Virus record (IMG/VR): IMGVR_UViG_3300026290_000001
Source of the DNA: a virus
DNA length: 64,000 nucleotides
Direction: 5' to 3' (one strand)
A program made the position numbers and the translations under genes. Within the stretch, counting starts at the first letter, position 1; every line of letters begins with the position of its first letter. This document shows positions 11,439 through 56,271 of this stretch, piece after piece. The notes under the pieces are model-generated. The model saw nothing but the letters and a program-made list of their open reading frames with translations, was not told the origin of the DNA and ran no database searches.

Positions 11439-11665
11439 AAAATAAAAATCATGATAAAATAAGTGTTTTATCATAATATTGCAGAAATCAGTATTTTGGT
11501 AGGTTATCAACAAATACACACAACAAAGCCCTAAATGGTGGGAATGAAAAGGTATTTTAAGTGGATTAACTCTACCAAAGTAAAAAATATTTGAACCAAA
11601 TGCGTCTTTTATTCAAAGTTTATTAAAAACATAAAATAAATATAAAGAAAAGAGGATTATATATA

Positions 11666-12370
11666 TTGAAACATATTTTAAGTTTTAGTGGCGGCAAAGA
11701 TTCAACCGCAATGTTACTCATAATGTTAGAGAGAGAATATCCAATAGATGAAATTATATTTTGCGATACTGGTAAAGAATTTCCTGCTTTATATAGACAT
11801 ATTGATAAAGTTGAAGAATACATAAACCAACCTATAACTAGGCTTAAAGGAGAAAAAACTTTTGATTATTGGATGTTCGAACATGAAAAAACCAAAGGTA
11901 AACATTTAGGTAAAAAGGGTTATGGTTGGGCAGACACCAGAGCAAGATGGTGTACAGCATATTTTAAGCGTGAAATTATGAATAAATACATAAAAGAAAA
12001 ATATAATAATGAATATAAAGAGTATGTAGGTATTGCTTATGATGAGTTTAAAAGATATGAGAAAACACAAAATGGTCATAAAAAATATCCTTTAATTGAA
12101 TGGAAAATAACTGAAGGTATGGCTCTAAAATATTGCTATGATAAAGGATTTGATTGGGAAGGAGTATACACACATTTTGAACGGGTATCTTGCTGGTGCT
12201 GCCCTTTAAAAAATCAGAGAGAATTATATATGCTTTATTCTTTCTATCCTGAATTATGGGCAGAACTCAAAGATATGGATAGTAGAGCATGGAACCAGTT
12301 TAAAAGAGATTACAGTGTTCAGGATTTAGAAGATAAATTTAGGGGATGGCAAGACATAATAAAAATATAA
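11666..12370 (+). CDS. PAPS reductase family protein (PP-loop, with C-terminal CC cluster)
   Basis: TTG start after AAGAGGA; PP-loop SFSGGKDS; C-terminal SCWCCP. Confidence 0.7.
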   Translation: MKHILSFSGGKDSTAMLLIMLEREYPIDEIIFCDTGKEFPALYRHIDKVEEYINQPITRLKGEKTFDYWMFEHEKTKGKHLGKKGYGWADTRARWCTAYFKREIMNKYIKEKYNNEYKEYVGIAYDEFKRYEKTQNGHKKYPLIEWKITEGMALKYCYDKGFDWEGVYTHFERVSCWCCPLKNQRELYMLYSFYPELWAELKDMDSRAWNQFKRDYSVQDLEDKFRGWQDIIKI

Positions 12371-12434
12371 ATATTTACTTTCTTTATAGTATGGTGTATA
12401 ATAAATATATCATATCTATATAGGAGGTTAAATT

Positions 12435-12644
12435 ATGAAAACATATAAAACTGAATCAGGAGAAGAATGGTTATATTTTGATGAATGGTTAGTAGAAAAC
12501 AGTTATTATAAATGGAAAAAACAATATGATATTTTAGCAAGTACGGGGACAGATGAAGAAGAAATAGATAGGATTAAAGACGATTTATTAAAACAATTCT
12601 ATGATTTTTGTGAAGAATATGGGTATGTTGGTCAGGAAGTATAA
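12435..12644 (+). CDS. hypothetical protein
   Basis: RBS TAGGAGG then ATG. Confidence 0.45.
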   Translation: MKTYKTESGEEWLYFDEWLVENSYYKWKKQYDILASTGTDEEEIDRIKDDLLKQFYDFCEEYGYVGQEV

Positions 12645-12668
12645 TTTATAATTTTTGTGTTTTACGAA

Positions 12669-12728
12669 CCCCTAAATAATGGGGTTTGTGAAACCAAAAA
12701 TCATGATAAAACTCATCTTTTGTGTTGA
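12669..12728 (+). promoter_or_regulatory. copy of the repeated intergenic module
   Basis: CCCCTAAATAATGGGG hairpin, AAAAATCATGATAAAAC, TTTTGTGTTGA. Confidence 0.35.
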
Positions 12729-12764
12729 TATTAAAATTTAAATATAAGGAGGTAATATTATTAA

Positions 12765-13517
12765 TTGTTTGAATTAAATAAAATATATTGTGTTGATTGT
12801 TTAGAAGGGATTAAAAATATAGAAAGTGGCAGTATTGATATGGTATTTTTTGATCCTCCTTTCAATTTAAACAAAGATTATGGAATTAAAATTAATGATA
12901 ATTTAATAAAAGAAAAATATTTAAACTGGCAGTATGAAATATTAAAAGAATCTATTAGAGTGCTATGTGATAATGGGGCAATAATTTATCATACTATCCC
13001 AAAATGGGCATTTAAAATAGCTAATTATCTTGATGAACAAGGAATGGTTTTTCAAAATTGGATTTGTTGGAATGAATCAGGATCAACACCTACCCCTTCA
13101 AGATTATATCCTAAACATTATCCTATTCTTTGGTTTTCTAAGAATAAACTCAAAACTTTTAATAAACAATATATTCCCATAGAAAGATGCAGAAAGTGCA
13201 ATACTACTATAAAAGATTATGGTGGCAAATTTAAAGATTTAAAAGAAATAGATGGTGAAAAAGTAACTGTTTTAAGTGATGTATGGGACGATATACATAG
13301 AATAAGACATAATAAAAATAAAAATAGAAAATCAAATGAACTTCCCGAAATTTTAATGGAAAGAATAATTAACTTATATTCTAAAGAAAATGATATAATT
13401 TTAGACCCATTTTCAGGTAGTGGGACAACATGTAAAATAGCAAAGAAACTAAATAGACAATATATTGGATTTGAAATTAATCCTGAATACATAAAAATCT
13501 CAAAAGAACGTATTTAA
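12765..13517 (+). CDS. DNA methyltransferase, beta-class (DPPF)
   Basis: TTG start after AAGGAGG; VFFDPPFNLNKDYG and DPFSGSGTT. Confidence 0.8.
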   Translation: MFELNKIYCVDCLEGIKNIESGSIDMVFFDPPFNLNKDYGIKINDNLIKEKYLNWQYEILKESIRVLCDNGAIIYHTIPKWAFKIANYLDEQGMVFQNWICWNESGSTPTPSRLYPKHYPILWFSKNKLKTFNKQYIPIERCRKCNTTIKDYGGKFKDLKEIDGEKVTVLSDVWDDIHRIRHNKNKNRKSNELPEILMERIINLYSKENDIILDPFSGSGTTCKIAKKLNRQYIGFEINPEYIKISKERI

Positions 13518-13598
13518 AACAACAAAATAATATTATTGACGTTGTTGACTTTGTTTGTGAAAATTGATATAATTAATAAAAATGTAGGAGGTATATTT

Positions 13599-13859
13599 AT
13601 GGCAGTACGCAGACAAAGGGCAACAACTAGTGCAGAAATAATGGATAAAGATATTAAAATAGTAATTAAAAAATCAAAAGTTCGCTATAGAAGTGTAGAA
13701 TCAAAATCTCATGGTTTTGTTAATGAATTTTGGATTGAAAAAATTGATGATTTATTTTTTTCAGGAGGTAAAATAAGTGAAGAAAGAATTTATCAACATT
13801 GGAAATTCAACTTTGATAAAAATAAGTGGGAGTGTATAGAAGACAAATCTAAAAATTAA
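13599..13859 (+). CDS. hypothetical protein
   Basis: Track ORF 13536..13859; ATG 13599 after TAGGAGG is the likelier start. Confidence 0.45.
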   Translation: MAVRRQRATTSAEIMDKDIKIVIKKSKVRYRSVESKSHGFVNEFWIEKIDDLFFSGGKISEERIYQHWKFNFDKNKWECIEDKSKN

Positions 13860-13878
13860 TTTAATAAGAAAAATACAA

Positions 13879-13940
13879 ATCCCATTATATCGGACTTCAT
13901 TTTTATAAAAATCATGATAAAACTTGTCTTTTGTCATGAT
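13879..13940 (+). promoter_or_regulatory. copy of the repeated intergenic module
   Basis: ATCCCATTATATCGGA, AAAAATCATGATAAAAC, TTTTGTCATGA. Confidence 0.35.
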
Positions 13941-13972
13941 ATTAAAACAAAAATAAATATGGAGGTTAAAAT

Positions 13973-15394
13973 ATAATTAAATTAAATAAGTTTGCATTAG
14001 TACAATTAACTCCAAAAGATATGCGAAGCCAAGATAGTATAAATTTAGGATTAGAAATTATATCTGAAATAGTTAAAAAACAAGGTTGGCAATTAGATAC
14101 ATATAAATTCGGAGATAAAATTCAAGATGTTAATTCATATGATATTATAGGGTTTAGTTTATTCTATTTTACACAAATGTTAAATTTAGTTCCATTCCTA
14201 AAGAGTAATAATATTAAACCATTAAGTAGTAAAAGAAACAATCAACCACTATTATTAGCTGGCGGTCAAGGTATTCAAAATCCTAAACCAATTAGTAAAT
14301 TTATTGATGTATTTTGTATGGGTGAGGGTGAGGGGGTTTTGGAATATATCTTAGAAAATTATAAAAATAAAAATATTTTATCAAACCATAAGTCTTTGTA
14401 TATACCAAATATAAATGATAATTTTATATTCAACTCAATAAAAGATGTTGATTCTAAACCTATAATTTATGGTAAAAATAGCATGATAGAATTAACGAGG
14501 GGATGTAAAAATAGATGTAAGTTTTGTCAGTATGGATGGACAAATGGTAAATATCGAGAAAAAAACATCGAACTAGTAAAACAACAAATATTAGAGGTTA
14601 AAGATAAAGGCATTAAAAATATTAACTTGTTAAGTTGTAATTTGGGTGGTTATTCTAAGATAAATGAAGTTCTTGATTTTTGTATAGAAGAAAATATTAG
14701 ATTAATGAATACCGATATGAGAATTGACGAATATAGTGAAGAAATAGCTATAAAATTAGACCTACTAAAAGTGAGAACTCTAAAAGTTGGAGTAGAAAGC
14801 TTTTCTGATCAAACACGAATTGGTATTAATAAGAATATTTCAAAAATACAATTAGATACTTTTATTGACAGAGCTTTGAAGCATAATATATCAAATTTAC
14901 ATTTTTATTTAATATACGGACTTCCAAACGAAGAAAACTATAATGAATGGTTTAATTATATGGAATACATAAAAAATAGAATAAAATCTGTTGATAGAAA
15001 TATAAGAATTGAATTTAGTATTACTAATTTTGAACCAGCAATATATACACCCTTTGAAAAAAGTCCTTTAATTAATTTCCAAGACAAGCATAAATTTATG
15101 AGAGAATATTTAATAAAACAAGAAGAATTGGGTTATATAAAACAACCCGCACAAACAAAAGATTATAAAAATAGTCATGGAAGATTAGGCAGAAAAGAAC
15201 GAAGTTATAATATTGGAATGTGGTTACTACATGGGGACGAAACTGTAGGGGATGTGTTATATGAATTAAACATTAAAGGAATAGGTAGGAGTATAAATGA
15301 AAAGATTTATAATCAAATTTATAAAATATGCCAATCAAAAACTGATGTTTATCAAATAAGAAACATTCAAGATTTAAATGAAAATATATGGTGA
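13973..15394 (+). CDS. B12-binding-domain radical SAM protein; probable ATA start
   Basis: CX3CX2C radical SAM motif (GCKNRCKFCQ); upstream GEGEG-containing B12-binding-like segment; frame opens at 13970; ATA 13973 is 7 nt after GGAGG; track ATG 14021 has no RBS. Confidence 0.7.
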   Translation: MIKLNKFALVQLTPKDMRSQDSINLGLEIISEIVKKQGWQLDTYKFGDKIQDVNSYDIIGFSLFYFTQMLNLVPFLKSNNIKPLSSKRNNQPLLLAGGQGIQNPKPISKFIDVFCMGEGEGVLEYILENYKNKNILSNHKSLYIPNINDNFIFNSIKDVDSKPIIYGKNSMIELTRGCKNRCKFCQYGWTNGKYREKNIELVKQQILEVKDKGIKNINLLSCNLGGYSKINEVLDFCIEENIRLMNTDMRIDEYSEEIAIKLDLLKVRTLKVGVESFSDQTRIGINKNISKIQLDTFIDRALKHNISNLHFYLIYGLPNEENYNEWFNYMEYIKNRIKSVDRNIRIEFSITNFEPAIYTPFEKSPLINFQDKHKFMREYLIKQEELGYIKQPAQTKDYKNSHGRLGRKERSYNIGMWLLHGDETVGDVLYELNIKGIGRSINEKIYNQIYKICQSKTDVYQIRNIQDLNENIW

Positions 15395-15402
15395 TGTCCA
15401 TG

Positions 15403-15460
15403 CCTATAAATTGGGATTCTCAACACTCAAAAACATGATAAAACTAGTTTTTGGTCATGA
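15403..15460 (+). promoter_or_regulatory. copy of the repeated intergenic module
   Basis: CCTATAAATTGGGATTC, AAAAACATGATAAAAC, TTTTGGTCATGA. Confidence 0.35.
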
Positions 15461-15470
15461 AATTAAATGC

Positions 15471-15499
15471 TTGACAAATATTAATTAAAATAGTAATAT
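15471..15499 (+). promoter_or_regulatory. sigma-70/sigmaA-type promoter upstream of the ligase gene
   Basis: TTGACA (15471-15476), 17-nt spacer, TAATAT (15494-15499); RBS GGGAGGAAGG; ATG 15526. Confidence 0.5.
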
Positions 15500-15525
15500 A
15501 AAGATACTGCGAAGGGAGGAAGGTT

Positions 15526-17397
15526 ATGAGTGAAATAGAAAATCTCAAACAACAATTAGATTACCATGATGATTTGTATTACAATCAAGACGATCCTGAA
15601 TTATCTGATGTGGAATATGATGCTTTAAAACAAGAATATCTTAATTCAGTTAATCAACAAGAATACAACTATATACCTGGGCAAGCACAATTTAAAAAAT
15701 TCACACACACATTCCCTATTAAATCATTGGGGAAAATAAATACTATTGAACAAGCAAGAAAAGAAATTGAAAGGTTATATCCAGTAGTTATTGAACCTAA
15801 ATATGATGGATTAACCTTAGTGTTATATGGTGAAGGGAAAGTAGTAACTAGAGGTAGTGGTCAAATCGGAGAAGATGTTACTGCAAATGCTTCTAGATTT
15901 ATGCGTACTTATAATCCATATGGTTTACCTATTCGTGGCGAAGCAATTATGCCTATATCAGTGTTCCATGAAATTAACAAACAAAGGGATGTAGAAGGTA
16001 AGGAATTATTTAAAAATCCAAGAAATGCAATAGCAGGTATTCTTAGAAATAAAGATAATAGTAATATCCCTAAAGGGTTAAGATTTATTGCTTATGAAAT
16101 CGTAGGATCAGCAGAATCCCATATTCAACAATTATTAGAACTTAAAAAATACTATGATATACCTGAAGCAGATACTATTTGGAATTATAGTGAAATTGAT
16201 GATGCAGTAAAATTCATAGAAAACTTTGATCGTTCTAAATTAGATTATGAAATTGATGGATTAGTTATTAAATCTAATAAGACAAATGCATTAGATATTT
16301 TTGGTGAAACTGAACATCATCCGAACCATAGTGTTGCCTACAAGTTTCCTTCTCAGGGAGAATGGACTGTATTAAAATCTATAACTTGGCAAACTGGTCG
16401 CACGGGCAGAATTACCCCTGTGGCAGAATTGGAACCAGTAGATATTATGGGAAGTACAATCGAACGTGCTACATTGCATAATATAGGGTATATTAGTGGT
16501 TTAGATTTACAGCTATATGATAAGGTGTTTTTAGTGAAAAGTAATGATATTATTCCCGCTGTGATTAAATGTGAGCATACTAAAAATAGTAAACCTATTG
16601 AAATTATAAACAAGTGTCCTTCATGTGGAAGTGAATTAAAAATTATCAATGATCAATTATTCTGTATTAATGATGATTGTTTGGCAAAATTATTATATAG
16701 AACTTCTCATATGGTTAGTCGAGATGCCCTTAATATAGATGGTCTTAGTGAGCAAACCATTTTAAAAATGATTGAAGCAGGATATATTAATAAACCTTGG
16801 GATATATTTGATGTTACTGAAACAGAAATATTAAAATTAGATGGTTTTGCAAAGAAATCTGCCAAAAAAATATATGAAAATATTCAAAATGCAAGAAATT
16901 GTGATTTTGATAGAGCAATTTACGCTTGTGGAATTGAACTGATAGGCAGAAAGGTTAGTAAAGATATTGCAAAAGAATTTGAGACTATTGATAATTTGTT
17001 ATATTGTTTAAGACGTGATGATGCTAGAAGTATATTAGGTATGATTGATGGTATTGGTAATACCACTATAGATAGTTTATTGAATAACGTTAATATTTTA
17101 GAAAATATGGTGGATTATTTAAGTATTAGTAGTGTTGAAAAGAAAGAAACAACTTTTAAATCTCTTGAAAATATTACATTTGTAGTTACCGGAAATGTAG
17201 AAACATTTAAAAACCGTAAAGAGTTAGAAGAATTGATCACTTCTCTTGGTGGTAAGTTAAGTGGATCAGTTTCAAGTAAAACTAATTATTTAATCAACAA
17301 CGATATTACCTCCAATTCTGGTAAGAATAAAAAGGCAAACGAATTAGGGGTAGAAATTATTAGTGAAATACGATTTAATGAAATGATAGGTAGGTAA
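15526..17397 (+). CDS. ligA: NAD-dependent DNA ligase (LigA type)
   Basis: Adenylation motif KYDG (EPKYDGLTL); Cys4 zinc finger (CPSCGSEL…C…C); C-terminal BRCT-like region; 623 aa. Confidence 0.85.
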   Translation: MSEIENLKQQLDYHDDLYYNQDDPELSDVEYDALKQEYLNSVNQQEYNYIPGQAQFKKFTHTFPIKSLGKINTIEQARKEIERLYPVVIEPKYDGLTLVLYGEGKVVTRGSGQIGEDVTANASRFMRTYNPYGLPIRGEAIMPISVFHEINKQRDVEGKELFKNPRNAIAGILRNKDNSNIPKGLRFIAYEIVGSAESHIQQLLELKKYYDIPEADTIWNYSEIDDAVKFIENFDRSKLDYEIDGLVIKSNKTNALDIFGETEHHPNHSVAYKFPSQGEWTVLKSITWQTGRTGRITPVAELEPVDIMGSTIERATLHNIGYISGLDLQLYDKVFLVKSNDIIPAVIKCEHTKNSKPIEIINKCPSCGSELKIINDQLFCINDDCLAKLLYRTSHMVSRDALNIDGLSEQTILKMIEAGYINKPWDIFDVTETEILKLDGFAKKSAKKIYENIQNARNCDFDRAIYACGIELIGRKVSKDIAKEFETIDNLLYCLRRDDARSILGMIDGIGNTTIDSLLNNVNILENMVDYLSISSVEKKETTFKSLENITFVVTGNVETFKNRKELEELITSLGGKLSGSVSSKTNYLINNDITSNSGKNKKANELGVEIISEIRFNEMIGR

Positions 17398-17400
17398 AAT

Positions 17401-17640
17401 ATGAACGATAAAATCTATATTATACCTAGAGAAGATAAACCAATAAAATTCATTATTGAAGAATTACCATGTCCTATCTGTTCACAAATTGGATATGATT
17501 TTAGATGTGAACATGCCAAAAGTAGTTTTAAAGATTTAATATATACAATATCTTGTACTAATTTTAATCATTGTGAAAATGCAGAGAATATATCATTGAA
17601 ATTCAATGAGTTAATACAAGATGAGTTGTTAACCACTTGA
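17401..17640 (+). CDS. hypothetical Cys-rich protein
   Basis: ATG immediately after the ligase stop; CPICSQ…CEH…C. Confidence 0.45.
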   Translation: MNDKIYIIPREDKPIKFIIEELPCPICSQIGYDFRCEHAKSSFKDLIYTISCTNFNHCENAENISLKFNELIQDELLTT

Positions 17641-17950
17641 CAGATTAGTAAAATAAATATATAATAAAATTACAACAAAATATCAAAAATATCAATTTTA
17701 CAAATCCCAATATATAGCCATTCTTGAAGGTGAAAATCAACACCAAATCTGCGTTTTGTCACAACTTTTATGAATGCTAATATACAGGGCTTGAGAATTG
17801 CTATTTTAAGCGAAAATACGGTAAAATCAATGGTTTTAAGTAATTACTAAAATTAGCTTTACATAAAGTCCAATATATAGGCGTTTATAATTCTAAAAAT
17901 CGTGACAAAAGTGTCATTTTGTTTAGAAATTATAGAAAGGGGAATTAAAT

Positions 17951-18136
17951 ATGGATAAAAATTTTTTATTGCTTTGTTCATATGAGAATATGGAAGGAAT
18001 GCTAGAAAGAGATTTTGAATGGTATCAAACAGAAGAAAACATGAGAGAAAGCATTGAAGATAAAAAAGAATTTATAAAAGATTTTACGGTCAATAAAGCA
18101 ATAGAAATATTACAAGTTAGAAATATAGAAATATAA
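17951..18136 (+). CDS. hypothetical protein
   Basis: RBS AAAGGGGAA then ATG. Confidence 0.4.
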   Translation: MDKNFLLLCSYENMEGMLERDFEWYQTEENMRESIEDKKEFIKDFTVNKAIEILQVRNIEI

Positions 18137-18192
18137 TTTAAATAATAAACCTTAGTAATAAAAACATTAAAAGGAGATGAATTATACATAAT

Positions 18193-18951
18193 TTGATTGA
18201 ATTGAATAAAATTTATAATGAAGATTGTATAGGTGGAAGGGGTATGTGTTTAATCCCAAATGAATCAATCGATATGATTTTATGTGATCTTCCGTATGGA
18301 ACTACGATGGCGAAATGGGATAAGATTATCAACCAAGAAGAATTGTGGACGCAGTATAGAAGGATAATTAAACCCAGAGGGGCAATTGTACTAACTTCTA
18401 GTCAGCCATTTTCAAGTGCTTTAATATATAAAAACCTAGACATTTATAGGCATTCATGGGTTTGGGAAAAGAACAATTCTGCAGATTATGCCAATGCAAA
18501 TTGTAGACCAATGAAAATACATGAGGAAGTATTGGTATTTTCATTCGCACATGATGTTGCTCCTGCTAAAGTAAAGATGATTTATAATCCACAGGGGCTA
18601 ATACCAGTTAATAAGCCCAATCGGAGAGGTAGACATAGTGAAACAACAGGTCATTTTAGAGAGAATGAGTACATACAAAAATACACAAACTATCCTACTA
18701 CAATATTGAGGTTTGCTTCAGATAAAGATAAAATTCACTCTACACAAAAACCTGTGGCGTTGTTTGAATATCTTATAGAAACATATAGTAATGAAGGTGA
18801 TTTGGTTTTAGATAATTGTATAGGCTCAGGCACAACAGCGATTGCGTGTATAAACATCAAACGTAAATTTATAGGGTTTGAAAATGACAATACATATTTT
18901 GAGTTAGCAAACAAAAGAATAGAAGAACATAAATGTAAAATAAATATTTGA
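18193..18951 (+). CDS. DNA methyltransferase, beta-class, motif IV variant DLPY
   Basis: TTG start after AAAGGAGA; MILCDLPYGTT; TQKP; DNCIGSGTT. Confidence 0.75.
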   Translation: MIELNKIYNEDCIGGRGMCLIPNESIDMILCDLPYGTTMAKWDKIINQEELWTQYRRIIKPRGAIVLTSSQPFSSALIYKNLDIYRHSWVWEKNNSADYANANCRPMKIHEEVLVFSFAHDVAPAKVKMIYNPQGLIPVNKPNRRGRHSETTGHFRENEYIQKYTNYPTTILRFASDKDKIHSTQKPVALFEYLIETYSNEGDLVLDNCIGSGTTAIACINIKRKFIGFENDNTYFELANKRIEEHKCKINI

Positions 18952-19212
18952 CATTTAACCACAAACAGTATATAATAAAATTACCAGCAATATGCATCAA
19001 AAATATTAAAAATTTGCTTTTTACAAATTCCATTATATAGGTATTTATCAATACCCACAAAGCCCGATATATTGGGATTTTTACAAAAACATTACCAAAA
19101 ACAAATTTGGTCATGATTTTAAATTTGTCTTATATAAATTCAATATATAAGAATTTATTTTAAAATAAATTGCTGAGTTGAAATACGAAAGAAAGGAGGA
19201 AATACATAAAGT

Positions 19213-31072: not shown

Positions 31073-34000
31073 ATGAATCAAACCACTAACCAAATATATG
31101 AATTTAAAGCAACACCGATATTTGAAAGGTATTATAATGACGAAACAAATTGGGGAGTATATAACTTCACCACTACAGATGATATTCCCCATTGTAATGA
31201 TTATAATGATCCTTTTCAAGAAAACTATACTGATAATATTAAACAAAGTACTTTAGTGGGTAAGTGTCAACAACTTTTTCTTGGTTCTGAATACATAGTA
31301 AATGCTAAACTTGAATACAATTCAAAATATAAAAAACACCAGTATGTACCTATTAATGTTACTGCAATTGTTCCTAAATCCGAACAATCACAAAGAGCAT
31401 TTTTAGAAGCAATAATTACCAAAAAACAAGCAGATATATTACTTGAAGTATATCCTAATATTGTTGAAGATACTATCAATGGGAATACGGACAATATTGA
31501 TTTGTCAAAAACTAAAGGTATTAAAGATTATACTTGGAATTATATTAAGGAAAGAATTATTAATAATTATGTAATATCAGATATTATTACATTGCTTCAA
31601 CCTATTGGTGTTACTTATTCAATGATTAAAAAACTATTAATGCACTATGGCAATCCTACTTTACTTAAAAATGATTTGTTAGACAATCCATATATTTTAA
31701 CTAAGATTTATGGATTGGGTTTTAAAAGAGTAGATGGATTGGCATTAAAATTAAAACCAGAATTAAAAGTATCAAATAAAAGGACTTATGCTTTTTTAAA
31801 TTATTATCTAAGAGAAATAGGAGAATCAAACGGTCATACATGGGTTACTTTTGATTTTCTTGAGAATGCAGTTCGTGACAATATTATTGAATGTGAAGAA
31901 TTGTATTATAAAATTTTAGATGTTGAAAGAGATACACAAGCATTATTATATATTGATGATGAAAAAAATAGAATTGGGTTAAAATATTATAGAGATATTG
32001 AAATTGCTATTTATGATATTTTAAAAGAATTGGATAGTTATAAGTCTGATTGGGATTTAGATGTTGAGAAGGGGATACAGCAAGCAGAAAAAGAACAAGG
32101 ATTTGAATTTTCTGATGAGCAAAAAAATATTATTAAAGAATCAGTAAAACATAATGTTGTTAGTATTTCAGGCAAGGCAGGTTGTGTTGATTGTGATACT
32201 GAATATTTTAATGGAATTGAATGGATTAAAATATCAAAATATAAAAATAAAGATAAGGTATTACAATATAATAAAGATGGGAGTGCTGAATTAGTTACCC
32301 CCTTAGAATATCATAAGTATCCGGCAGAATATTTATGGCACTTTGAAACAAAGTATGGATTAGATCAATGTTTATCAGATGAACATAATGTATATTACAT
32401 AACTTCAAAAAATAATTTATATCACAAAACATTTAAGGAAGTTAGAGAAAATCATAATACAACTGGATTTAAAGGTAGATTTATTACTACTTTTAATTAT
32501 GAAGGTAAGGGATTACCTTATAATGAATGGGAAATAAGATTAAAAGTAGCAATAAAGGCAGATGGTAGTTTTTATAGTTCAAATCCTTATACTTGTTATA
32601 TTAATGTTAAAAAACAAAGAAAAAAAGATAGAATTGAATACTTGTTAGATAAAAATAATATAAATTATGAAATAATGAAAAGTGGGGAAGGATATAATAG
32701 ATATAAGTTTACATATTTAGATAACGAAAAAACATACACTAATGAATGGTATAATTGTAATAAGGAACAATTTAAAATCATTTTTGATGAAATATTTTAT
32801 TGGGATGGAAATTTTAATGATAGAGATCAATATTATACTTCATTAAAATCGGATGCAAATTTTATTCAATTTGTAGGAACAACATTAGGTTATAAATCAA
32901 CTATTCAAATTCAAAACAGATTAAATAGAAAATATAAAACTGCTGGAAAAGAATATACTAGAAAATCAATTGGTTATATAGTTGTTTTTACAAAAAGAAA
33001 TTTAATAGGTTTATGTTCAGACTCAAGAGAGGATCATACAAAAACCCCAATTATTCAATATAAAACATTAGATGGTTTTAAATATTGTTTTACCGTTCCT
33101 TCAGGTATGTTAGTTTTACGTAGAAATAATAAAATATTTATTACCGGGAATTCAGGTAAAACCACTATTTCTAGAGCATTACTAACAATATATAAAAATG
33201 CAAATAAAACAATAGGAACCTGTGCACTTTCTGCCAAAGCTGCACAACGTATCACTGAAGCAACTGGTTTTCAAGCATCTACTATTCACCGTTTATTAGG
33301 AGCAAAAGGATTAAATGAATTTACTTTTAATTATGAAAATCCATTACCTTATGATGTGATTTTAGCAGATGAATGTAGTATGAATAATGCAAGAATTTTT
33401 TATGATTTGATCTCAGCAATTAAACCAGGATCGAAATTAATCATGTCTGGTGATTGTCGGCAGTTACCTCCTATTGGTTTTGGGAACATTTTTAGTGACG
33501 TTCTTGAATTAAAAGAGCAATTTAATATTTATGAACTTACTAAAGTACATAGGCAAGCAGAAAAATCAGGAATATTAACCGATGCTAATCTAATTAGAGA
33601 GGGTATTAATCCTATTCAACAACCTGAATTTAAAATTGTTAGTGGTGAATTGCAAGACATGTACTACATGTTTAGAGATAATAAACAAGCATTAAATGAT
33701 ATTGCAATTAAAATGTATTTAAAATCAATTGAAGAAGATGGGTTGGATGATGTTATAATTATTACTCCAAGAAAAAAAGATTGTATTAATAGTACTATTG
33801 AAATTAATAGAATAATTCAAGATAAATTAATTAGTGACAATAAACCATTTTTAAAAAAGGGTAATTTAAAATTTAAACTTGGTGCAAAGGTAATTCAAAG
33901 AGTAAATAATTATGATAAGAATATTTTTAATGGTGAAATAGGATATATTGTTGATATTTTTAAGGCAAAACCTACAGATGAATATGACAATATGTTTACA

Positions 34001-34282
34001 GTACAATATCCTAGTAAAACCATTACCTATTCAAAGAACGAATTGGATCAGATTGATTTAGCATATGCCCTTACGATCCATCTCGCACAGGGTAGCGGAT
34101 ATAAAACTACAATAGTTATTATTGATAATTCTCATTATATTTTACTTGATAGTTGTTTACTTTATACAGGTATTACTAGAGCGAAACAAAGGTGCTTATT
34201 ATTGGCTGAACCTTCAGCATTTAAAAAATGTATTGTTAATAATAAAAGTATTGAAAGGCAAACATGGTTTAAAGAATTTTAA
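31073..34282 (+). CDS. RecD-like (superfamily 1) DNA helicase with an apparent intein in the P-loop
   Basis: C-terminal AYALTIHLAQGSGYKTT and LLYTGITRAK; Walker A split as ISGKAG / SGKTT by a 323-aa insert. Confidence 0.7.
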   Translation: MNQTTNQIYEFKATPIFERYYNDETNWGVYNFTTTDDIPHCNDYNDPFQENYTDNIKQSTLVGKCQQLFLGSEYIVNAKLEYNSKYKKHQYVPINVTAIVPKSEQSQRAFLEAIITKKQADILLEVYPNIVEDTINGNTDNIDLSKTKGIKDYTWNYIKERIINNYVISDIITLLQPIGVTYSMIKKLLMHYGNPTLLKNDLLDNPYILTKIYGLGFKRVDGLALKLKPELKVSNKRTYAFLNYYLREIGESNGHTWVTFDFLENAVRDNIIECEELYYKILDVERDTQALLYIDDEKNRIGLKYYRDIEIAIYDILKELDSYKSDWDLDVEKGIQQAEKEQGFEFSDEQKNIIKESVKHNVVSISGKAGCVDCDTEYFNGIEWIKISKYKNKDKVLQYNKDGSAELVTPLEYHKYPAEYLWHFETKYGLDQCLSDEHNVYYITSKNNLYHKTFKEVRENHNTTGFKGRFITTFNYEGKGLPYNEWEIRLKVAIKADGSFYSSNPYTCYINVKKQRKKDRIEYLLDKNNINYEIMKSGEGYNRYKFTYLDNEKTYTNEWYNCNKEQFKIIFDEIFYWDGNFNDRDQYYTSLKSDANFIQFVGTTLGYKSTIQIQNRLNRKYKTAGKEYTRKSIGYIVVFTKRNLIGLCSDSREDHTKTPIIQYKTLDGFKYCFTVPSGMLVLRRNNKIFITGNSGKTTISRALLTIYKNANKTIGTCALSAKAAQRITEATGFQASTIHRLLGAKGLNEFTFNYENPLPYDVILADECSMNNARIFYDLISAIKPGSKLIMSGDCRQLPPIGFGNIFSDVLELKEQFNIYELTKVHRQAEKSGILTDANLIREGINPIQQPEFKIVSGELQDMYYMFRDNKQALNDIAIKMYLKSIEEDGLDDVIIITPRKKDCINSTIEINRIIQDKLISDNKPFLKKGNLKFKLGAKVIQRVNNYDKNIFNGEIGYIVDIFKAKPTDEYDNMFTVQYPSKTITYSKNELDQIDLAYALTIHLAQGSGYKTTIVIIDNSHYILLDSCLLYTGITRAKQRCLLLAEPSAFKKCIVNNKSIERQTWFKEF
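32183..33151 (+). other. candidate intein (Hint plus LAGLIDADG-like endonuclease domain) in the helicase Walker A motif
   Basis: Starts CVDCDT (Cys1, DT at 5-6); ends ITGN with +1 Ser; internal IKADGSF and FYWDGNF about 100 aa apart; removal restores GKAGSGKTT. Confidence 0.5.
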
Positions 34283-34392
34283 TCAAAAACATAATATAAA
34301 TATATTGACAAACAACAACATAAATAATATACTATTACTAAGGAGCGAGGCACAGAAAAACAGAATTTTGGATTGATGAGACTATAAATATT

Positions 34393-34578
34393 TTGTCAAC
34401 TAGGGAATTATCTTTAAAAGATTTTGGTGGTATAGAAAGTGTTTGTATAGGAGATTCTGGATATCCACTTTGTACAATTACTTTTAAAAACGGTATAGAA
34501 ATATATGCGGAAAATCAATCTCCACTTTGGGCAGTAGAAGAGAATGATAAAATATTAGATAGTTTAAACCAAAGGTAA
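34393..34578 (+). CDS. hypothetical protein
   Basis: 61-aa ORF in a coding-dense region; weak RBS. Confidence 0.35.
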   Translation: MSTRELSLKDFGGIESVCIGDSGYPLCTITFKNGIEIYAENQSPLWAVEENDKILDSLNQR

Positions 34579-34619
34579 ATTTCGTTCAAACTTAAAAAGA
34601 AAGGAGGATAAATTTAAAA

Positions 34620-35219
34620 ATGCCAGCACAAATACCAGACACAGAATACATGCTAGACGATTCAAAGAGACAAATTCTAGAAAACAATATAGATTTTATT
34701 CACTATATAACTAACAAACTTTTAAATACCCACGATATATCCAGGGATCAATATGATGATATTTTTCAAGATTGTACTATTGACTTTATCAAATGTTTAA
34801 AAGAATTTGACAAATCTAAGTCTAAAATCACTACTTATACAGGTAAAAAAATGATATCCGAACACAATAGAAGAATGGATAGATACTACAAAAAGAAAAA
34901 TGTTTTAGGCGAATATTTCTTTGATGACATTATCAATAGTGATTCCGAAGATACATTAGAAGTACTTAATGTTTTATCTGCTACATATGATTTTGAAGAC
35001 AATATAATTCATAATATTTTTATTCAAGATATATTAAATCAGTTAGAAAATAAATTTTCATCAAGAAATTTAGAAATTTTTAATTTACATATGAACGGAA
35101 TAAAGCAAACCAAAATAGCAAAGATGTATAATATTACTAGTCAAAGAGTAGGGCAAATTATTAGTAAATTTAGAGAAGAGGCACAAAAGTTAATGATAGA
35201 AAATGGGATATATCAATAG
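34620..35219 (+). CDS. sigma-70 family RNA polymerase sigma factor
   Basis: Region-2-like FQDCTIDFIKCLKEFD…TTYTGKKMISEHNRRM and region-4 HTH NGIKQTKIAKMYNITSQRVGQIISKFREEA. Confidence 0.6.
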   Translation: MPAQIPDTEYMLDDSKRQILENNIDFIHYITNKLLNTHDISRDQYDDIFQDCTIDFIKCLKEFDKSKSKITTYTGKKMISEHNRRMDRYYKKKNVLGEYFFDDIINSDSEDTLEVLNVLSATYDFEDNIIHNIFIQDILNQLENKFSSRNLEIFNLHMNGIKQTKIAKMYNITSQRVGQIISKFREEAQKLMIENGIYQ

Positions 35220-35343: not shown

Positions 35344-35688
35344 ATGAAAATTATAAACAATCCTTTTGATACTATAATTCAAGCAGTAGAAGAATTATAT
35401 CCTAATACACATGCACTTATTCAGTTTAATCCAGAATTAAGAGGCAGAGATTATGGAGAATGTGGATGCACCACCTTCCCTACTAACCCAGACGAAGAAA
35501 TATTAATAGACATATCTACTAACATCCCTTTTATTCACATGCCTGAGATTCTTGCACATGAATTAGCACATGTAGTAGTTGGCACAAATGAAGAAAATGA
35601 TCATGGTGATAAATGGCAGGAAGTGTTTGATGCTATTCATGTAAAATATGAAGAGTTAGTAGATTTTGCTGAGAAAGAATATTCGTAA
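35344..35688 (+). CDS. small HExxH metallopeptidase-like protein
   Basis: HELAH motif with downstream acidic residues. Confidence 0.4.
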   Translation: MKIINNPFDTIIQAVEELYPNTHALIQFNPELRGRDYGECGCTTFPTNPDEEILIDISTNIPFIHMPEILAHELAHVVVGTNEENDHGDKWQEVFDAIHVKYEELVDFAEKEYS

Positions 35689-43398: not shown

Positions 43399-43734
43399 GA
43401 TTTAGTTAAATTTAGTTATAGGACAATCATAGGTGTTCATAAGTTTATATGGGAAAATGGTGAACCATATAGACCAAATTATTTAAGTGATTTATTTAAA
43501 AAGACAGTTACTGATAATAATTTACCACCAATAAGACTGCATGATTTAAGACATACATTCGCAAGTGTAGCAAATGAATTAGGAGTTGGATTATATGATA
43601 TTAGCAAAGCATTAGGTCATAGTCAAATAGGTACTACTAGCGAAATATACACACATATGTTTGATAAGACCCATAAGAAAACCATTAGTAAAGTTGCCGA
43701 TGCCTTTAAAGAAACAGAAAAAAATAAGGAATGA
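43399..43734 (+). pseudogene. C-terminal remnant of a tyrosine recombinase (integrase) lacking a start codon
   Basis: In-frame RLHDLRHTFAS … LGHSQIGTTSEIYTH (HxxR … Y catalytic region); frame opens after TAA at 43396 with no ATG/GTG/TTG for a full-length product. Confidence 0.55.
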
Positions 43735-43792
43735 TATTTCTACCATTCCTTACATTCTTTATACATTTTTTAAAGTTATCCACAGGCTACAA

Positions 43793-43853
43793 ATCCCAAT
43801 ATATAGGCATTTGTTTTTCTGAAAATCATGATAAAAACCTTATTTGGTTCAAA
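43793..43853 (+). promoter_or_regulatory. copy of the repeated module in plus orientation with no plus-strand gene downstream
   Basis: ATCCCAATATATAGG, AAAATCATGATAAAAAC, TTTGGTTCAAA; abuts the stop of minus-strand ORF 43857..44216. Confidence 0.3.
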
Positions 43854-43856
43854 TTA

Positions 43857-44216
43857 TTATCTAACTTGTTCTTTCCATGCATTTCCAAATTGCTTTTTCA
43901 ATGTTTTTAAAGACGATTCAATTAAAATTTGAATTTCACTTTCAGTTAAAGCAATACCTTTTTTATTCAACATTTCCGATAAAGCAATAAATGCTTCTCT
44001 ATATTTAGTTTGACCATCAACATCTTTAAAACTCTTTTGAACATATAAAACTGCAAGTCTAGCTAATTCTTGATTAGTCTGAATTTCATGATCAATCTTT
44101 TTAAGATTCTCTATACCTAATTTTTTCTTTAAAAGTGCAATTATAAAATATGAAAAAATCAATCCTATGATATACATAATATTTAAAAATAATTCACTAA
44201 TGATTTGATTATCCAT
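43857..44216 (-). CDS. membrane-anchored protein at the end of the lysis cassette (holin-like)
   Basis: Single N-terminal TM segment then charged domain; directly downstream of the endolysin. Confidence 0.4.
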   Translation of the reverse strand: MDNQIISELFLNIMYIIGLIFSYFIIALLKKKLGIENLKKIDHEIQTNQELARLAVLYVQKSFKDVDGQTKYREAFIALSEMLNKKGIALTESEIQILIESSLKTLKKQFGNAWKEQVR

Positions 44217-46361: not shown

Positions 46362-46377
46362 AAAATCATTTTTAAGA

Positions 46378-46442
46378 ATCCCAATATATAGGGATTTCTA
46401 AACCCGAAAATTTGAACCAAATTAAAGATTTGTTATGATACA
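46378..46442 (-). promoter_or_regulatory. copy of the repeated module in minus orientation upstream of 45780..46361
   Basis: ATCCCAATATATAGGGAT hairpin and TTTGAACCAAA (reverse complement of TTTGGTTCAAA). Confidence 0.3.
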
Positions 46443-46456
46443 AAATAAAAACATAA

Positions 46457-47461
46457 TTATTGATAGAAATATTGAGTATAACTTTGTTGCTTGTGTTCAA
46501 ACGTTTGTTTTGCGTAAATGCCCGTAGTTTGAATATCATCATGACCTAAAAGTTCTTGTAATACCGACATTGGACAACCGTTATTTAGCATCAAGGTTGC
46601 GAAAGTATGTCTGAGCATATGGGGATGAGTTCTCTTGTCAAGCCCTGCACGTTTACCTATTGCTGCTATTTCTCGTTGAATACCTCGATTGCTTAATCTT
46701 CTATATTCCTGCCGTTCTGTTACAAATAATGCTTCACAGTCATCCTTACGACTTTCAAGATATTTTTTAAGGTAAATTGCAGCTCTAGCAGAATAGAATA
46801 CAATTCGCTCTTTGTTTCCTTTGCCTAATACCTTAATCGTCCGATTTGATTGTCCTATATCATCTTTATTTAGTGCCGATATTTCAGATAATCGACAACC
46901 TGTTGAATACATAATTTCAGTTAATGCTTTTTCTCGCAAAGTGAAACAACTTTCACGGAATAGTTCCAATTCTTCAATTGTTAATGCCTTTGCCATTGCT
47001 TTTCCCACTTTATAAGGTTTAATTCTAATCATCGGATTTTCTTCAATAATCTGTTCCTCACAAAGCCATTCAAAGAAACTGCGAAGTACTGAGCGAATTG
47101 TCTCAACAGTACTTTTAGCATTTACTGTTGGGTCGCTTTCCCGATCATCCAGATAGTTAATTATGTCCTGCTTGGTTATTTCATTTACTGGTTTTTCTTC
47201 GGTTCTATCGGTAAATATTTTAAGATGAAGTCGATAATTATCAATAGTTATTGGACTTAATCCTTGCCGTTTTTTATCCTTCAAAAACAGTTTTATGTTT
47301 TTCCGCAAATTATAATATTCTGGATCGCTGTTTTGTTTTATAACTCTGTATTCATCAAGAATGGAGGCTAATTGATTTTTAGCCTCCATCTTATTCATGC
47401 CTTTTTCTATGATTCCATCTACAATTTTAGCATATAGCTCATAATTGAGATTAGGGTGCAT
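46457..47461 (-). CDS. tyrosine site-specific recombinase (integrase), XerC/D-like
   Basis: Catalytic signature RLSE … HPHMLRHTFAT … LGHDDIQTTGIYA; 334 aa. Confidence 0.85.
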   Translation of the reverse strand: MHPNLNYELYAKIVDGIIEKGMNKMEAKNQLASILDEYRVIKQNSDPEYYNLRKNIKLFLKDKKRQGLSPITIDNYRLHLKIFTDRTEEKPVNEITKQDIINYLDDRESDPTVNAKSTVETIRSVLRSFFEWLCEEQIIEENPMIRIKPYKVGKAMAKALTIEELELFRESCFTLREKALTEIMYSTGCRLSEISALNKDDIGQSNRTIKVLGKGNKERIVFYSARAAIYLKKYLESRKDDCEALFVTERQEYRRLSNRGIQREIAAIGKRAGLDKRTHPHMLRHTFATLMLNNGCPMSVLQELLGHDDIQTTGIYAKQTFEHKQQSYTQYFYQ

Positions 47462-54448: not shown

Positions 54449-55741
54449 TCAGTCATGAGATGAATTGGCTCTGTTCTGTTCATATATAATCCATGATTTT
54501 CTTGCATTAATTCTTTGCATGTTAGATATTTTCGGTGTCTTCATACCTCTGGGTGCATTACTAAAATCTATTTTTTCACCATCTATACCCATAAGAATGG
54601 CATAACCCGTAGACATTCTACCTTTAATAAAATATTCATTACCTATATACCTTACTTTATCAAACTTCCTAAATCCTTCTATTTTACCTGTAGGTATCTT
54701 CTGATGACTTCTTACTCCTTTTGCCTGTTGGTAATCGCCTTTAGGGATACACTTTTTTAATACAGCTTTTTCAGTTTTAAAGCTTACATCAATTAACCCT
54801 ATATCTTCAATATTATTTAAACAGGCAATAGCTACAGCATCGTAGTAATGCTCTTTTGGTAATCCCATTAGCTGTCTATGTTCTTTGGTAATAAATCCAA
54901 AGGTTTCTTTTGCATTTGGTAGCTGTCTTAATAATTGTTGTCTTATACTATTCATCTGTGTTGTGTGTTTTAATTGTCCTTTAATTTTACCATTCTTCTT
55001 TAATTTAATTCCTCCTTTGTGCAAACTATTATGACAAGTTTTACAAAGTGTAATTAAATTTTCTGCATCATCTGAGCCACCATTTTTTCTAAAAACTATA
55101 TGATGTACCTCTAATCTGCTGTCTTTACTTTTTCCTTTGCAATACTGGCAAATATATTTATCTCTACTTAATACATAAGCTTTAGTATTAGCAAATCCAT
55201 AATTAGTTCCTTTTTGATAAAGCCATTTATTACTTAATACTGCTGGATTTTTTAAAGCATGTGGGTCAAATGTTGCTGTTTCTATTATTATATTTGTAAT
55301 GGGCATTATTGATTTTGCAAAATCAATTTCTTTTAAGTGTGAATTAATTTTACTTGTCATTGTAGGAGAAAATCTATCTTTTTTAATGCTGTTTTTCCTA
55401 TTATTAAATCTAGGTTCCCTATATCTAGTTTTCCTATTCCTTCTAGTTCTCCTATATTTAGCTCTTTTGTCCATTTTGTCAGATATATCATTTCTAATTT
55501 CTACTTCTGATATATAATACACTTCATTTTCGTCATTTGCTACTGCACTTCCTATTTTACTACTACCAGTATCAATTCCTAAAGTTAAATCTTGTGTATA
55601 GTCTGTAGCATGATATAGTAATTTAATTGTAAATGGAGTTCTTCTTATGCATTTTGCTTTACCATCTTTTAACAATAATCTTGCTATTGCTGGTTTACAA
55701 GGCATTAAAGGACTCCCATCTTCATTAATTACATAAACCAT
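54449..55741 (-). CDS. iscB: IscB, OMEGA-family RNA-guided endonuclease (PLMP domain, split RuvC, HNH)
   Basis: PLMP (EDGSPLMPCKPAIARLLLKDGKAK); RuvC-I LGIDTGSSKIGSAV; RuvC-II IIIETATFD; HNH CQYCKG…HHIVFRKNGGSDDAENLITLCKTCH; RuvC-III PKEHYYDAVAIAC; 430 aa; RBS AAAGGA. Confidence 0.8.
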   Translation of the reverse strand: MVYVINEDGSPLMPCKPAIARLLLKDGKAKCIRRTPFTIKLLYHATDYTQDLTLGIDTGSSKIGSAVANDENEVYYISEVEIRNDISDKMDKRAKYRRTRRNRKTRYREPRFNNRKNSIKKDRFSPTMTSKINSHLKEIDFAKSIMPITNIIIETATFDPHALKNPAVLSNKWLYQKGTNYGFANTKAYVLSRDKYICQYCKGKSKDSRLEVHHIVFRKNGGSDDAENLITLCKTCHNSLHKGGIKLKKNGKIKGQLKHTTQMNSIRQQLLRQLPNAKETFGFITKEHRQLMGLPKEHYYDAVAIACLNNIEDIGLIDVSFKTEKAVLKKCIPKGDYQQAKGVRSHQKIPTGKIEGFRKFDKVRYIGNEYFIKGRMSTGYAILMGIDGEKIDFSNAPRGMKTPKISNMQRINARKSWIIYEQNRANSSHD

Positions 55742-56025
55742 AAAATCAAATCCTTTCGGATAAATACTCTGCTTAAAAGCAGGTTATGCGTATCTATATA
55801 CTATTACCATATATAGAATTCGTCCTCATCTCGACAATGATAAAATAGCTTATATGTATATCACACCGAGCCTTACCCTCCAACTCTACTTAGTGATATA
55901 CGATAGAGCAATGGTCTGATGCGTCAACCAAAGGTATCATAACTATTCTATCGTAGTATAAATTTCTCTATACTAAGTCTGGTGAACTTAGACTTTAGAA
56001 GCCTCCGACTTTAGTCGGGGGTAGT
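55742..56025 (-). ncRNA. candidate omegaRNA of the IscB locus
   Basis: ~280-nt non-coding stretch directly 5' of iscB; GC well above surroundings; nested inverted repeats (GTGAACT…CCGACTTTAGTCGG…AGTTCAC at 55982-56030; GTATATCAC/GTGATATAC; CTGCTTAAAAGCAG). Confidence 0.4.
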
Positions 56026-56271
56026 TCACTCTATTTCAGGATTGATAGATAAATCATCTTTGCTTGTACTATTTACATTAGATAAATTATCTTCATTGGA
56101 CAAATCATCATTAATAATTTGACTTAATTCGTCTATTTTAGAACTTAATTTGATAATCTCTATCTGATACATATTATTTTGTAAACATAAAGTGACTACA
56201 TCTAAGGGCAAATTACTATTGTTTATTAACTCTGCCAGTTTAATATTAAAATCACTTATAATAAAAATCAC
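56026..56271 (-). CDS. hypothetical protein
   Basis: 81-aa ORF; overlapping plus-strand ORF 56192..56539 is hydrophobic low-complexity and less plausible. Confidence 0.35.
   Translation of the reverse strand: MIFIISDFNIKLAELINNSNLPLDVVTLCLQNNMYQIEIIKLSSKIDELSQIINDDLSNEDNLSNVNSTSKDDLSINPEIE

Follow-up and report, generated by a model that had tools for sequence, protein, structure and literature searches.

The window analysed here is a 64,000-nucleotide (nt) stretch of viral DNA (IMG/VR record IMGVR_UViG_3300026290_000001) with 27% G+C and no tRNA genes, in which an ATG-initiated open reading frame (ORF) of 199 amino acids (aa), at 34620-35219 on the + strand, had been interpreted in an earlier note, made from the letters of the DNA alone, as the gene of a phage-encoded sigma-70 family sigma factor. 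The ORF list of the window places the gene exactly where that note had placed it. On the + strand, which carries the genes up to 43.3 kilobases (kb), the order is DnaB-type helicase, primase, RecJ-like exonuclease, endonuclease, DnaE-type polymerase, RecD2/Dda-type helicase with an intein, sigma factor, small genes and NrdD/NrdG, while from 43.8 kb onwards the lysis, integrase and tail genes are found on the - strand. The sigma gene is always located after the replication genes (RecJ, endonuclease, DnaE, RecD2-type helicase) and before the anaerobic ribonucleotide reductase genes, and its position after the helicase is kept in the relatives on the contigs L004, L005 and L006.

The window sequence matches two IMG/VR contigs, of 99,574 and 64,930 base pairs (bp), with full identity, and the same phage is present on contigs of 135,317 (JGI 3300009607, Ga0123327_1000018), 135,335 and 138,134 bp, which sets the genome size at ~135 kb. 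Of this genome 107 kb were assembled, the 99.6 kb contig being walked by three protein-based scans with joins without conflict; positions beyond the window are given in window orientation.

Identity and architecture of the sigma protein

Profile comparisons place the 199-aa product in the sigma-70 family. It passes the curated cutoff of the NCBIfam model TIGR02937 for the sigma70-ECF superfamily (45.1 bits versus 42.9, E 7.7e-12), with an alignment that covers residues 17-191 and profile positions 4-164 of 165 and has both domains in the right order, and it matches PHROG 351 and PHROG 1740, both annotated as 'RNA polymerase sigma factor', with E values of 2.5e-11 and 2.6e-10, respectively. The hidden Markov model search which the earlier note had proposed as a check thus returned a sigma profile above its cutoff, and not the lack of any sigma profile that was to speak against the claim. 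As for the region-2 and region-4 signatures reported there, the profile matches indicate that they are real, yet weak by Pfam alone: TIGR02937 and the PHROG families support them, while the Pfam models Sigma70_r2 and Sigma70_r4 stay sub-threshold on the protein itself. Family membership is supported transitively as well, as among 64 relatives that were aligned and each scanned with Pfam, most of which (56) share no more than 19-33% identity with the query, Sigma70_r2 is matched by 52 and Sigma70_r4 by 39.

An AlphaFold2 model built on this 64-sequence alignment (mean predicted local distance difference test score, pLDDT, of 85.5) consists of two confident all-helical domains, a predicted sigma2 and a predicted sigma4 domain, joined by a low-confidence linker which is rich in insertions and deletions among homologues (domain limits in Table 1). 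The sigma2 domain reaches a pLDDT of 93-98 over residues 11-80, with helices at 14-22, 24-37, 42-60 and 70-96, and the sigma4 domain one of 82-97, with helices at 125-145, 148-158, 163-169 and 174-194; a three-helix sigma3 domain is not present in the model, in which residues 97-124 are of low confidence. A conserved region 2.2-like motif (F49, Q50, D51 ... F56 ... D64) is the predicted feature for binding of the core RNA polymerase, and these five residues as well as Y73 are invariant in the family alignment.

Each of the 50 listed Foldseek matches in the PDB is a sigma factor or a complex that contains one (E down to 9e-5), including models of Bacillus subtilis SigH and SigD, sigma32, SigA, sigmaS, sigma28, ECF SigH, SigL and AlgU, with template modelling scores that are low (0.27-0.38) because the two sigma domains are flexibly linked. 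Among viral models (BFVD), nearly all named fold matches are to sigma factors or RNA-polymerase specificity subunits of phages, at 12-21% identity. When the close-family profile was compared with PDB chains by sequence, sigma-H 3mzy_A ranked first (E 2.5e-4) with residues 47-196 aligned, ahead of SigA, SigF, SigK and FliA chains. Residues 126-184 pair with region 4 in SigA chains, and the C-terminal domain corresponds to region 4.2 in chains of SigA and SigH. The SigF and SigG models of NCBIfam are matched over residues 15-85, within the sigma2 domain.

Judged by profiles and predicted fold, the 199-aa product is a very divergent sigma-70-family protein of the minimal two-domain type (sigma2-linker-sigma4), so that the designation as a phage-encoded sigma-70 family sigma factor is borne out by TIGR02937, the PHROG families, the Pfam matches of the relatives, the fold matches and the phage surroundings. 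The modelled domain architecture is ECF-like or sigma-H-like. It shares with the bacterial two-domain factors of these types (Fusobacterium nucleatum sigma-H 3mzy, B. subtilis SigH, Mycobacterium tuberculosis SigH and SigL), which provide the best solved-structure matches, the length of ~160-220 aa and the order sigma2-linker-sigma4 without sigma1.1 or a real sigma3, but differs from them in that the matches reach E values of only 1e-4 to 1e-3, no anti-sigma gene is adjacent and the gene is phage-borne.

A protein with sigma-derived domains could also be something other than an initiation factor, namely a helix-turn-helix (HTH) regulator or a decoy that sequesters the host core and so shuts down host transcription while the phage polymerase described below takes over. 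The C-terminal HTH (residues 143-189) scores equally well against the Pfam models HTH_28, Mor and Sigma70_r4, aromatic residues in region 2.3 of the kind that melting-competent primary sigma factors usually have could not be made out in the sequence, and an RNA polymerase owned by the phage would be immune to such a decoy. ECF-type sigma factors likewise do without the aromatic cluster of primary sigma factors. As the family retains both domains together with the core-binding motif residues of region 2.2 and the TIGR02937 match extends over the full length of the protein, such a function appears highly improbable.

The sigma family and the expression of its gene

Close homologues of the protein (n = 24, counted as protein clusters) are all metagenomic, share 56-98% identity and keep its length. 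All 24 are without a name, and their precomputed Pfam domains are only HTH_28 and HTH_23, because the Pfam models for regions 2 and 4 are sub-threshold for this sigma protein. Among the 1.84 billion cluster representatives searched, E values below 1e-30 are reached by the cluster of the protein itself alone; the next relatives outside this cluster are at most 37% identical (E 2e-20), and 333 proteins, mostly of 160-210 residues, are found at E 1e-3 or better. Compared with three orthologues, the ratio of nonsynonymous to synonymous substitution rates (dN/dS) of the gene is 0.11-0.29, equal to purifying selection, and together with the 24 length-conserved homologues this identifies a real, functional gene.

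The family occurs on three contigs only in IMG/VR, and its profile matches exactly one ORF in the 107 kb of the phage and none in SPβ. The protein has no tblastn match (E ≤ 1e-5) in 50,697 GenBank phage records, and megablast against GenBank phages gave no match. The gene thus represents a small, previously unnamed sigma family, so far found solely on contigs of an uncultivated phage lineage of ~135 kb. Three relatives from outside the family were examined on their contigs, where they reside amid short uncharacterised genes or phage-type replication genes; one relative of 37% identity adjoins an SPβ-like replication module.

These relationships bear on the possibility that the protein is a host-directed auxiliary sigma factor, sporulation- or sigma-H-like, which would reprogramme host genes, for instance of dormancy, stationary phase or competence, and not those of the phage, an effect already demonstrated for the SigF/SigG-like factors that Bacillus phages encode. 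After TIGR02937, the next-best NCBIfam models are SigF (E 3.4e-10), SigK and SigG, a label 'SigF-like' would follow from the rule of Schwartz et al. 2022 (PMC9429907), the best solved-structure matches are sigma-H proteins, phages of the SPβ type are entangled with sporulation (PMC8270828), and the absence of the gene from SPβ suggests that it is dispensable for the basic cycle. On the other hand, the scores against sporulation-sigma models are 19-40 bits versus cutoffs of 234-457 (SigF 40.2, SigG 26.9 and SigK 27.9 bits versus 321, 372 and 252, respectively), every specific sigma subfamily cutoff is missed, and the sigma3 domain of SigF, SigG, SigE and SigK is missing in the phage protein. 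Furthermore, no bacterial homologue was found in the species-representative genomes of GTDB, thus giving no sign of recent capture from a host, and the surroundings of the nearest outside-family relatives are those just described. We therefore regard a host-directed role as rather unlikely. The label 'SigF-like' was considered and rejected as undeserved for a protein with 40 bits versus a cutoff of 321 and without sigma3. With the sporulation-like phage sigma factors (Schwartz, Lehmkuhl and Lennon 2022, PMC9429907), the protein has in common the low-G+C Bacillota phage background and SigF as next-best TIGRFAM model; it differs in remaining far under the SigF, SigG and SigK cutoffs and in the missing sigma3, and a spore-forming host is not indicated.

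The sigma gene is probably expressed early, as suggested by a near-consensus sigmaA-type promoter, its conserved hexamers and the confinement of such promoters to the early strand. The promoter (Table 1) is the best sigma-70-type match (11/12) within 30-44 kb. L004, L005 and L006, the sigma orthologues of which are 90%, 82% and 61% identical as proteins, possess TTGACA-17-TATAAT at the same place, with a spacer that is the same in L005 and L006, different in L004 and in all three unlike that of the window. Intergenic sigmaA matches of at least 10/12 with an intact TTG number only eight in 107 kb, all on the early strand, and none of the eight is found within the 54 kb late region. In the relatives, the promoter is followed directly by the sigma gene, while in the window an insertion of ~250 nt, missing in the relatives and containing a doubtful 61-aa ORF, separates the two: the alignments of L004 and L005 to the window skip from ~34342-34345 to ~34592-34618, and the alignment of L006 ends at ~34310, only ~50 nt ahead of its sigma gene.

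Target promoters, the phage polymerase and the repeated module

Outside the window, at ~89.7-93.3 kb (contig IMGVR_UViG_3300009671_000358, L162, positions 4305-7927), the phage possesses a YonO-like region, which is located upstream of the terminase-to-lysis genes and in the same orientation, as in SPβ. Its 934-aa ORF matches the YonO profile with 144.9 bits (E 2.9e-46) and in tblastn aligns with numerous YonO homologues (E down to 3e-36, 24-26% identical), and the catalytic DxDxD is kept (SDWDFD opposite FDNDGD). A separate 273-codon ORF after it resembles the C-terminal zinc ribbon of YonO, which suggests that the polymerase gene is split or rearranged. A gene for a CoiA-like nuclease lies ahead of the YonO-like gene. 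On this sequence evidence, the phage encodes a divergent single-subunit RNA polymerase of the YonO type. YonO is a single-subunit polymerase distantly related to the multi-subunit enzymes, which transcribes the whole structural and lysis operon of SPβ (PMC5467207, PMC8270828), comprising 37 late genes as one operon (PMC5467207). By analogy, the virion genes of the present phage probably belong to the transcription of the YonO-type enzyme, and the sigma factor, which would act solely via the host core polymerase, is more likely a middle-class or accessory switch than a late-gene switch.

A classical late-gene sigma factor like SPO1 gp34 or T4 gp55, which switches the host polymerase to the structural and lysis genes, would have the role that is most frequent among essential sigma factors of phages (PMC9429907) and would agree with the fact that no sigmaA-type promoter was found in the 54 kb late region. 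This role is nevertheless very unlikely, given a YonO-type polymerase placed as in SPβ, where YonO transcribes the late genes (PMC5467207), and no repeated promoter-like motif of a non-sigmaA type found in the late intergenic DNA. The recurring late-strand sequence TTATTAATATAAA (five exact copies) was considered as a late promoter or -10 element and rejected as too close to stop codons and ribosome-binding sites; two of the five copies are part of duplicated methyltransferase gene ends.

The sigma factor could, alternatively, be coupled to the phage polymerase, either as its promoter-specificity partner or as an obligatory link in a succession from host sigmaA via the phage sigma factor with host core to the YonO-type polymerase. 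Both genes reside in one genome, the promoter of the YonO-like operon is located outside the sequence covered, and Forrest et al. 2017 left open whether YonO recognises promoters alone or with a phage or host factor (PMC5467207). A direct partnership is unlikely, as neither SPβ nor any other of the YonO phages examined has such a sigma factor, and surfaces for sigma contact may be missing in YonO, since it is without most conserved domains of the multi-subunit polymerases (PMC5467207). As a whole, a coupling of either kind seems extremely improbable.

The reading that we consider fairly probable is that of a sigma-70 factor made early which redirects the host core polymerase to a class of phage promoters with a middle or accessory regulon. 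After infection or induction, the host sigmaA holoenzyme would transcribe the sigma gene at the time of the early and replication genes or shortly after the latter, and the sigma protein would bind the host core RNA polymerase via its region 2.1-2.2 surface in competition with sigmaA. The core would thereby be redirected to phage promoters with a -35 element unlike TTGACA. Such an element is hinted at by the recognition helix of region 4.2, which reads SQRVGQ in the sigma protein and RQRVGQ in most of the family, as compared with RERIRQ in the aligned sigmaA chain. The regulon would most likely be a 'middle' or accessory set, possibly including the YonO-like operon, rather than the virion genes, because a YonO-type polymerase is present and YonO transcribes the late operon of SPβ.

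Several observations weigh against this reading. On the protein itself, Pfam Sigma70_r2 (19.1 bits, residues 27-73) and Sigma70_r4 (11.4 bits) score below their gathering cutoffs (GA) of 24 and 24.1, respectively. Two scans of the 185,579 species-representative genomes in GTDB, aimed at prophage copies that would identify the host, found no relative. SPβ does without such a sigma factor, so that the gene may be accessory. A search of 78 intergenic segments for dyads (5-mers at 14-19 nt spacing) and shared 10-mers revealed no new two-block motif; it returned only low-complexity A/T strings, the module described below, contexts of ribosome-binding sites and sigmaA-type promoters. Finally, ~28 kb of the genome, including the DNA upstream of the operon with the YonO-like gene, are outside the coverage.

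The earlier note had pointed to the repeated intergenic module of the window as a candidate target of the sigma factor. The module as such is real and consists of an inverted repeat AAATCCC-N8-GGGATTT, a spacer of ~12 nt, the block AAAATCA and a second inverted repeat, in which CATGAYAAAA or ACCAAA is followed by a loop and then by TTTTGTCATG or TTTGGT. In the window, a profile search identifies 12 full copies in addition to about a dozen partial ones; the full copies are all on the + strand, either in the methyltransferase-rich region at 4.3-19.1 kb or flanking the lysis cassette at 43.8 and 46.4 kb. In the DNA immediately upstream of the window, three copies run counter to their neighbouring genes, and no copy was found in the replication, nucleotide-metabolism or late modules, with ~54 kb of late genes reconstructed. 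Outside the window, the module is present on L008, L005 (12740-12812), L193 (452-514), L202, L212 and L219, and the true copies in IMG/VR belong to the same phage, to close relatives and to two distant relatives (short fragments). In the first repeat, the loop is found in either orientation (CCCAATATATAGGG and CCTATATATTGGG). The inverted repeats are genuine, with 75% of cells paired versus <50% when slid; their covariation is no better than in shuffles, the repeats being conserved as sequence, and no Rfam family matches the module.

With respect to promoters, perfect TTGACA-17-TATAAT sequences at 17637-17665 and 18948-18976 are followed by a shared AAAATTAC leader and then, 30-80 nt downstream, by the module, which is thus located in the transcribed leader (promoter-to-module spans 17637-17775 and 18948-19125). 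On L193, the proteins of which are 23-45% identical, TTGACT-17-TATAAT, AAAATTACC, the module and a ribosome-binding site succeed each other in front of the same gene. For the copies at 15397 and 7415, the sigmaA-type promoter comes after the module, not before it. Due to this position next to sigmaA-type promoters, kept in L193, the module behaves, as far as its placement tells, as an element attached to host-type early promoters and not as a novel promoter class.

The model in which the module is the promoter of the sigma factor and sets the timing of the genes behind each copy can draw on the 10 of 12 full copies that are co-oriented with and upstream of + strand genes, on copies that end 5-30 nt ahead of a ribosome-binding site, on the sequence-conserved blocks AAAATCA ... 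TTTGGT/TTTTGT, which show no covariation beyond conservation, and on the module relative of L193, which comes from the same metagenome sample as the sigma homologue of 37% identity. Against it, the copies at 43787 and 46371 are directed into the 3' ends of genes encoded on the - strand, the three copies upstream of the window are inverted, those at 17697 and 19055 are the ones found downstream of perfect sigmaA-type promoters, in a layout kept in L193, and those at 15397 and 7415 precede such promoters. In addition, the spacing of the blocks changes in short versions, the replication, nucleotide-metabolism and late modules are without copies, and L006, with its 61%-identical sigma factor, does not possess the module in its 12 kb. 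The module hence lacks support as a candidate target of the sigma factor, given its placement, mixed orientation, inverted repeats and position downstream of sigmaA-type promoters, and we assign this model very little probability.

In SPβ, the repeated element SPBRE occurs in ten early promoters, including that of the replication operon, and is the operator of MrpR, the master repressor with a tyrosine-recombinase fold (PMC10516654). By analogy, not homology, the module may be a repressor operator; module and SPBRE have no sequence similarity. Copies of the module have been gained or lost between close relatives. The module separates most genes of the methyltransferase array, which continues ~10 kb upstream of the window (L008) and at ~95.5-97.6 kb on the - strand, contains paralogous blocks (81-82% identical DNA at 3501/8515 and 4080/9067) and has PAPS-reductase-like, radical-SAM, NAD-dependent ligase, RtcB and RNA ligase genes in its midst.

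As to the function of the sigma factor, temporal control by a dedicated promoter class, likewise proposed in the earlier note, is a plausible and reasonable expectation which is to be revised for the phage's own polymerase; a promoter class of this kind was not found in the intergenic segments searched.

Phage lineage, neighbouring features and significance

Late proteins of the phage match the Pfam families XepA, YomN, YOMG_N and YomF_N, which are named after SPβ prophage proteins. Identities to proteins of cultured phages are low, at 25-48% overall and 24-35% to SPβ-type proteins, and the closest DnaE among GenBank phages is that of Clostridium phage Amboise (48%), near the DNA polymerase of which no sigma factor was seen. 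These similarities characterise the phage as a member of a distant uncultivated SPβ-like lineage outside the genus Spbetavirus. Its host is presumably a strict anaerobe, as the phage carries NrdDG.

The common features with SPβ (NC_001884) are the genome size of ~135 kb and a collinear gene order, with yorI-yorJ-yorK-yorL-type replication genes on one strand, a late operon on the opposite strand (terminase, portal, tape measure, YomH, YomG, YomF, lysis) in which an integrase-like gene is embedded, a YonO homologue upstream of the late genes and a repeated element at early sigmaA-type promoters, which in SPβ include that of the replication operon. The SPβ programme relies on host sigmaA promoters under MrpR/SPBRE and on transcription of the late operon by YonO. 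SPβ differs in having neither a sigma gene nor a RecD2-type helicase, in aerobic NrdEF versus NrdDG, in one methyltransferase versus >13 and in SPBRE (CAAATACAAAWAATATGTATA), which is located inside the promoter spacer and is unrelated to the module found downstream of the promoter in the present phage; the proteins of the two phages are only ~25-35% identical.

Table 1. Positions of the features discussed, other than the sigma gene itself (window coordinates unless a contig is named)
Feature	Position	Strand	Remarks
SigmaA-type promoter	34305..34333	+	TTGACA-17-TATACT; most likely drives the sigma gene
Doubtful 61-aa ORF	34393..34578	+	TTG start, without clear ribosome-binding site, no Pfam match
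Shine-Dalgarno sequence	34600..34608	+	aaaggagga; 11 nt ahead of the ATG; kept in L004 and L005
Predicted sigma2 domain	34650..34907	+	Residues ~11-96; region 2.1-2.2 core-binding motif DDIFQDCTIDFIKCLKEFDKSKSKITTY and region 2.3-2.4 equivalent
Predicted flexible linker	34908..34991	+	Residues ~97-124; pLDDT 58-70, two short helices only
Predicted sigma4 domain	34992..35201	+	Residues ~125-194; helix-turn-helix (QTKIAKMYNITSQRVGQIISKFR)
SprT-like gene	35344-35688	+	First sizeable gene after sigma; 114 aa, HExxH (HELAH), 23.6 bits versus GA 25.6
Intein in RecD2-type helicase	32183-33151, in gene 31073-34282	+	323 residues (C371 to N693)
Module copies	4329-19125, 43787-43860, 46371-46446	+	Profile search
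Methyltransferase array	237-18951	+	At least 13 N6_N4_Mtase, D12, Dam and MT-A70 ORFs
Tyrosine recombinase C-terminal fragment	43440-43735	+	Ends at a terminator-like hairpin (43724-43753)
Complete integrase gene	46457-47461	-	3 kb from the recombinase fragment
IscB/omega-RNA element	54449-56029	-	OMEGA, IS200/IS605-type; within the tail-gene region
ORF of 430 aa	54449-55741		RRXRR and HNH
HEARO RNA (Rfam)	55819-56029		121.7 bits (GA 83); directly 5' of the 430-aa ORF
Lone gene in the tail operon	57736-58335	+	Secreted protein, copper-amine-oxidase N-terminal-like domain
Late intergenic stretch	L154 1834-2139 (~88.6-88.9 kb)	-	306 nt
YonO-like ORF	L162 4305-7109 (~90.5-93.3 kb)	-	934 codons; tblastn and profile

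Among the ORFs neighbouring the sigma gene (the 61-aa ORF, the 114-aa SprT-like protein and small uncharacterised proteins), no anti-sigma domain was found, and there is no sign that the SprT-like protein regulates the sigma factor. The intein of the preceding helicase interrupts the Walker A motif (SGKAG|C...GN|SGKTT); it is missing in L006, which has an intein in the NrdD gene instead, and is longer in L005, with a LAGLIDADG domain.

In the late region, the lysis cassette is situated between the recombinase fragment and the complete integrase gene on the opposite strand and is bracketed by two module copies in direct orientation; at 46-50 kb, the G+C content is 0.34-0.37. The 135 kb contigs have the 430-aa ORF of the IscB element at the equivalent position. 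The lone + strand gene within the - strand tail operon, probably a moron, possesses its own A/T-rich upstream region and is also kept in the 135 kb contigs. The late intergenic stretch on L154 contains a putative tRNA-like 3' part (...GGTTCAAATCCTATACTCGGCTCCA).

Around 13% of phage genomes encode at least one sigma factor (PMC9429907). Known examples are SPO1 gp28 and gp34, T4 gp55 and the SigF/SigG-like factors of Bacillus phages, and as phage sigma factors are textbook timing devices, the bare finding of one more is ordinary. The present protein is a divergent addition to this known class. With the sigma factors of Bacillota phages (SPO1 gp28/gp34; PHROG 351 and 1740; Bacillus phages Shanette, Bobb, Eldridge and Deep Blue), to which profile and fold matches connect it, it shares the small sigma2 plus sigma4 organisation, the location among early and replication genes and the presumed redirection of the host core polymerase. 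It differs in being 12-21% identical to its structural neighbours and in its coexistence with a YonO-type polymerase.

Three aspects nevertheless extend beyond the bare finding. The annotation is now transferable to a sigma family too divergent for the Pfam thresholds, and a tempting connection between the sigma factor and the module has been corrected, the placement of the module recalling the SPBRE/MrpR operators of SPβ. The somewhat interesting aspect is the pairing of the sigma factor with a YonO-type polymerase, of which no description was found in the SPβ literature that was read. With a sigma factor for the host enzyme and a YonO-type polymerase of its own, this SPβ-type lineage of presumed anaerobes would be a natural system for the division of a phage genome between two transcription machineries.

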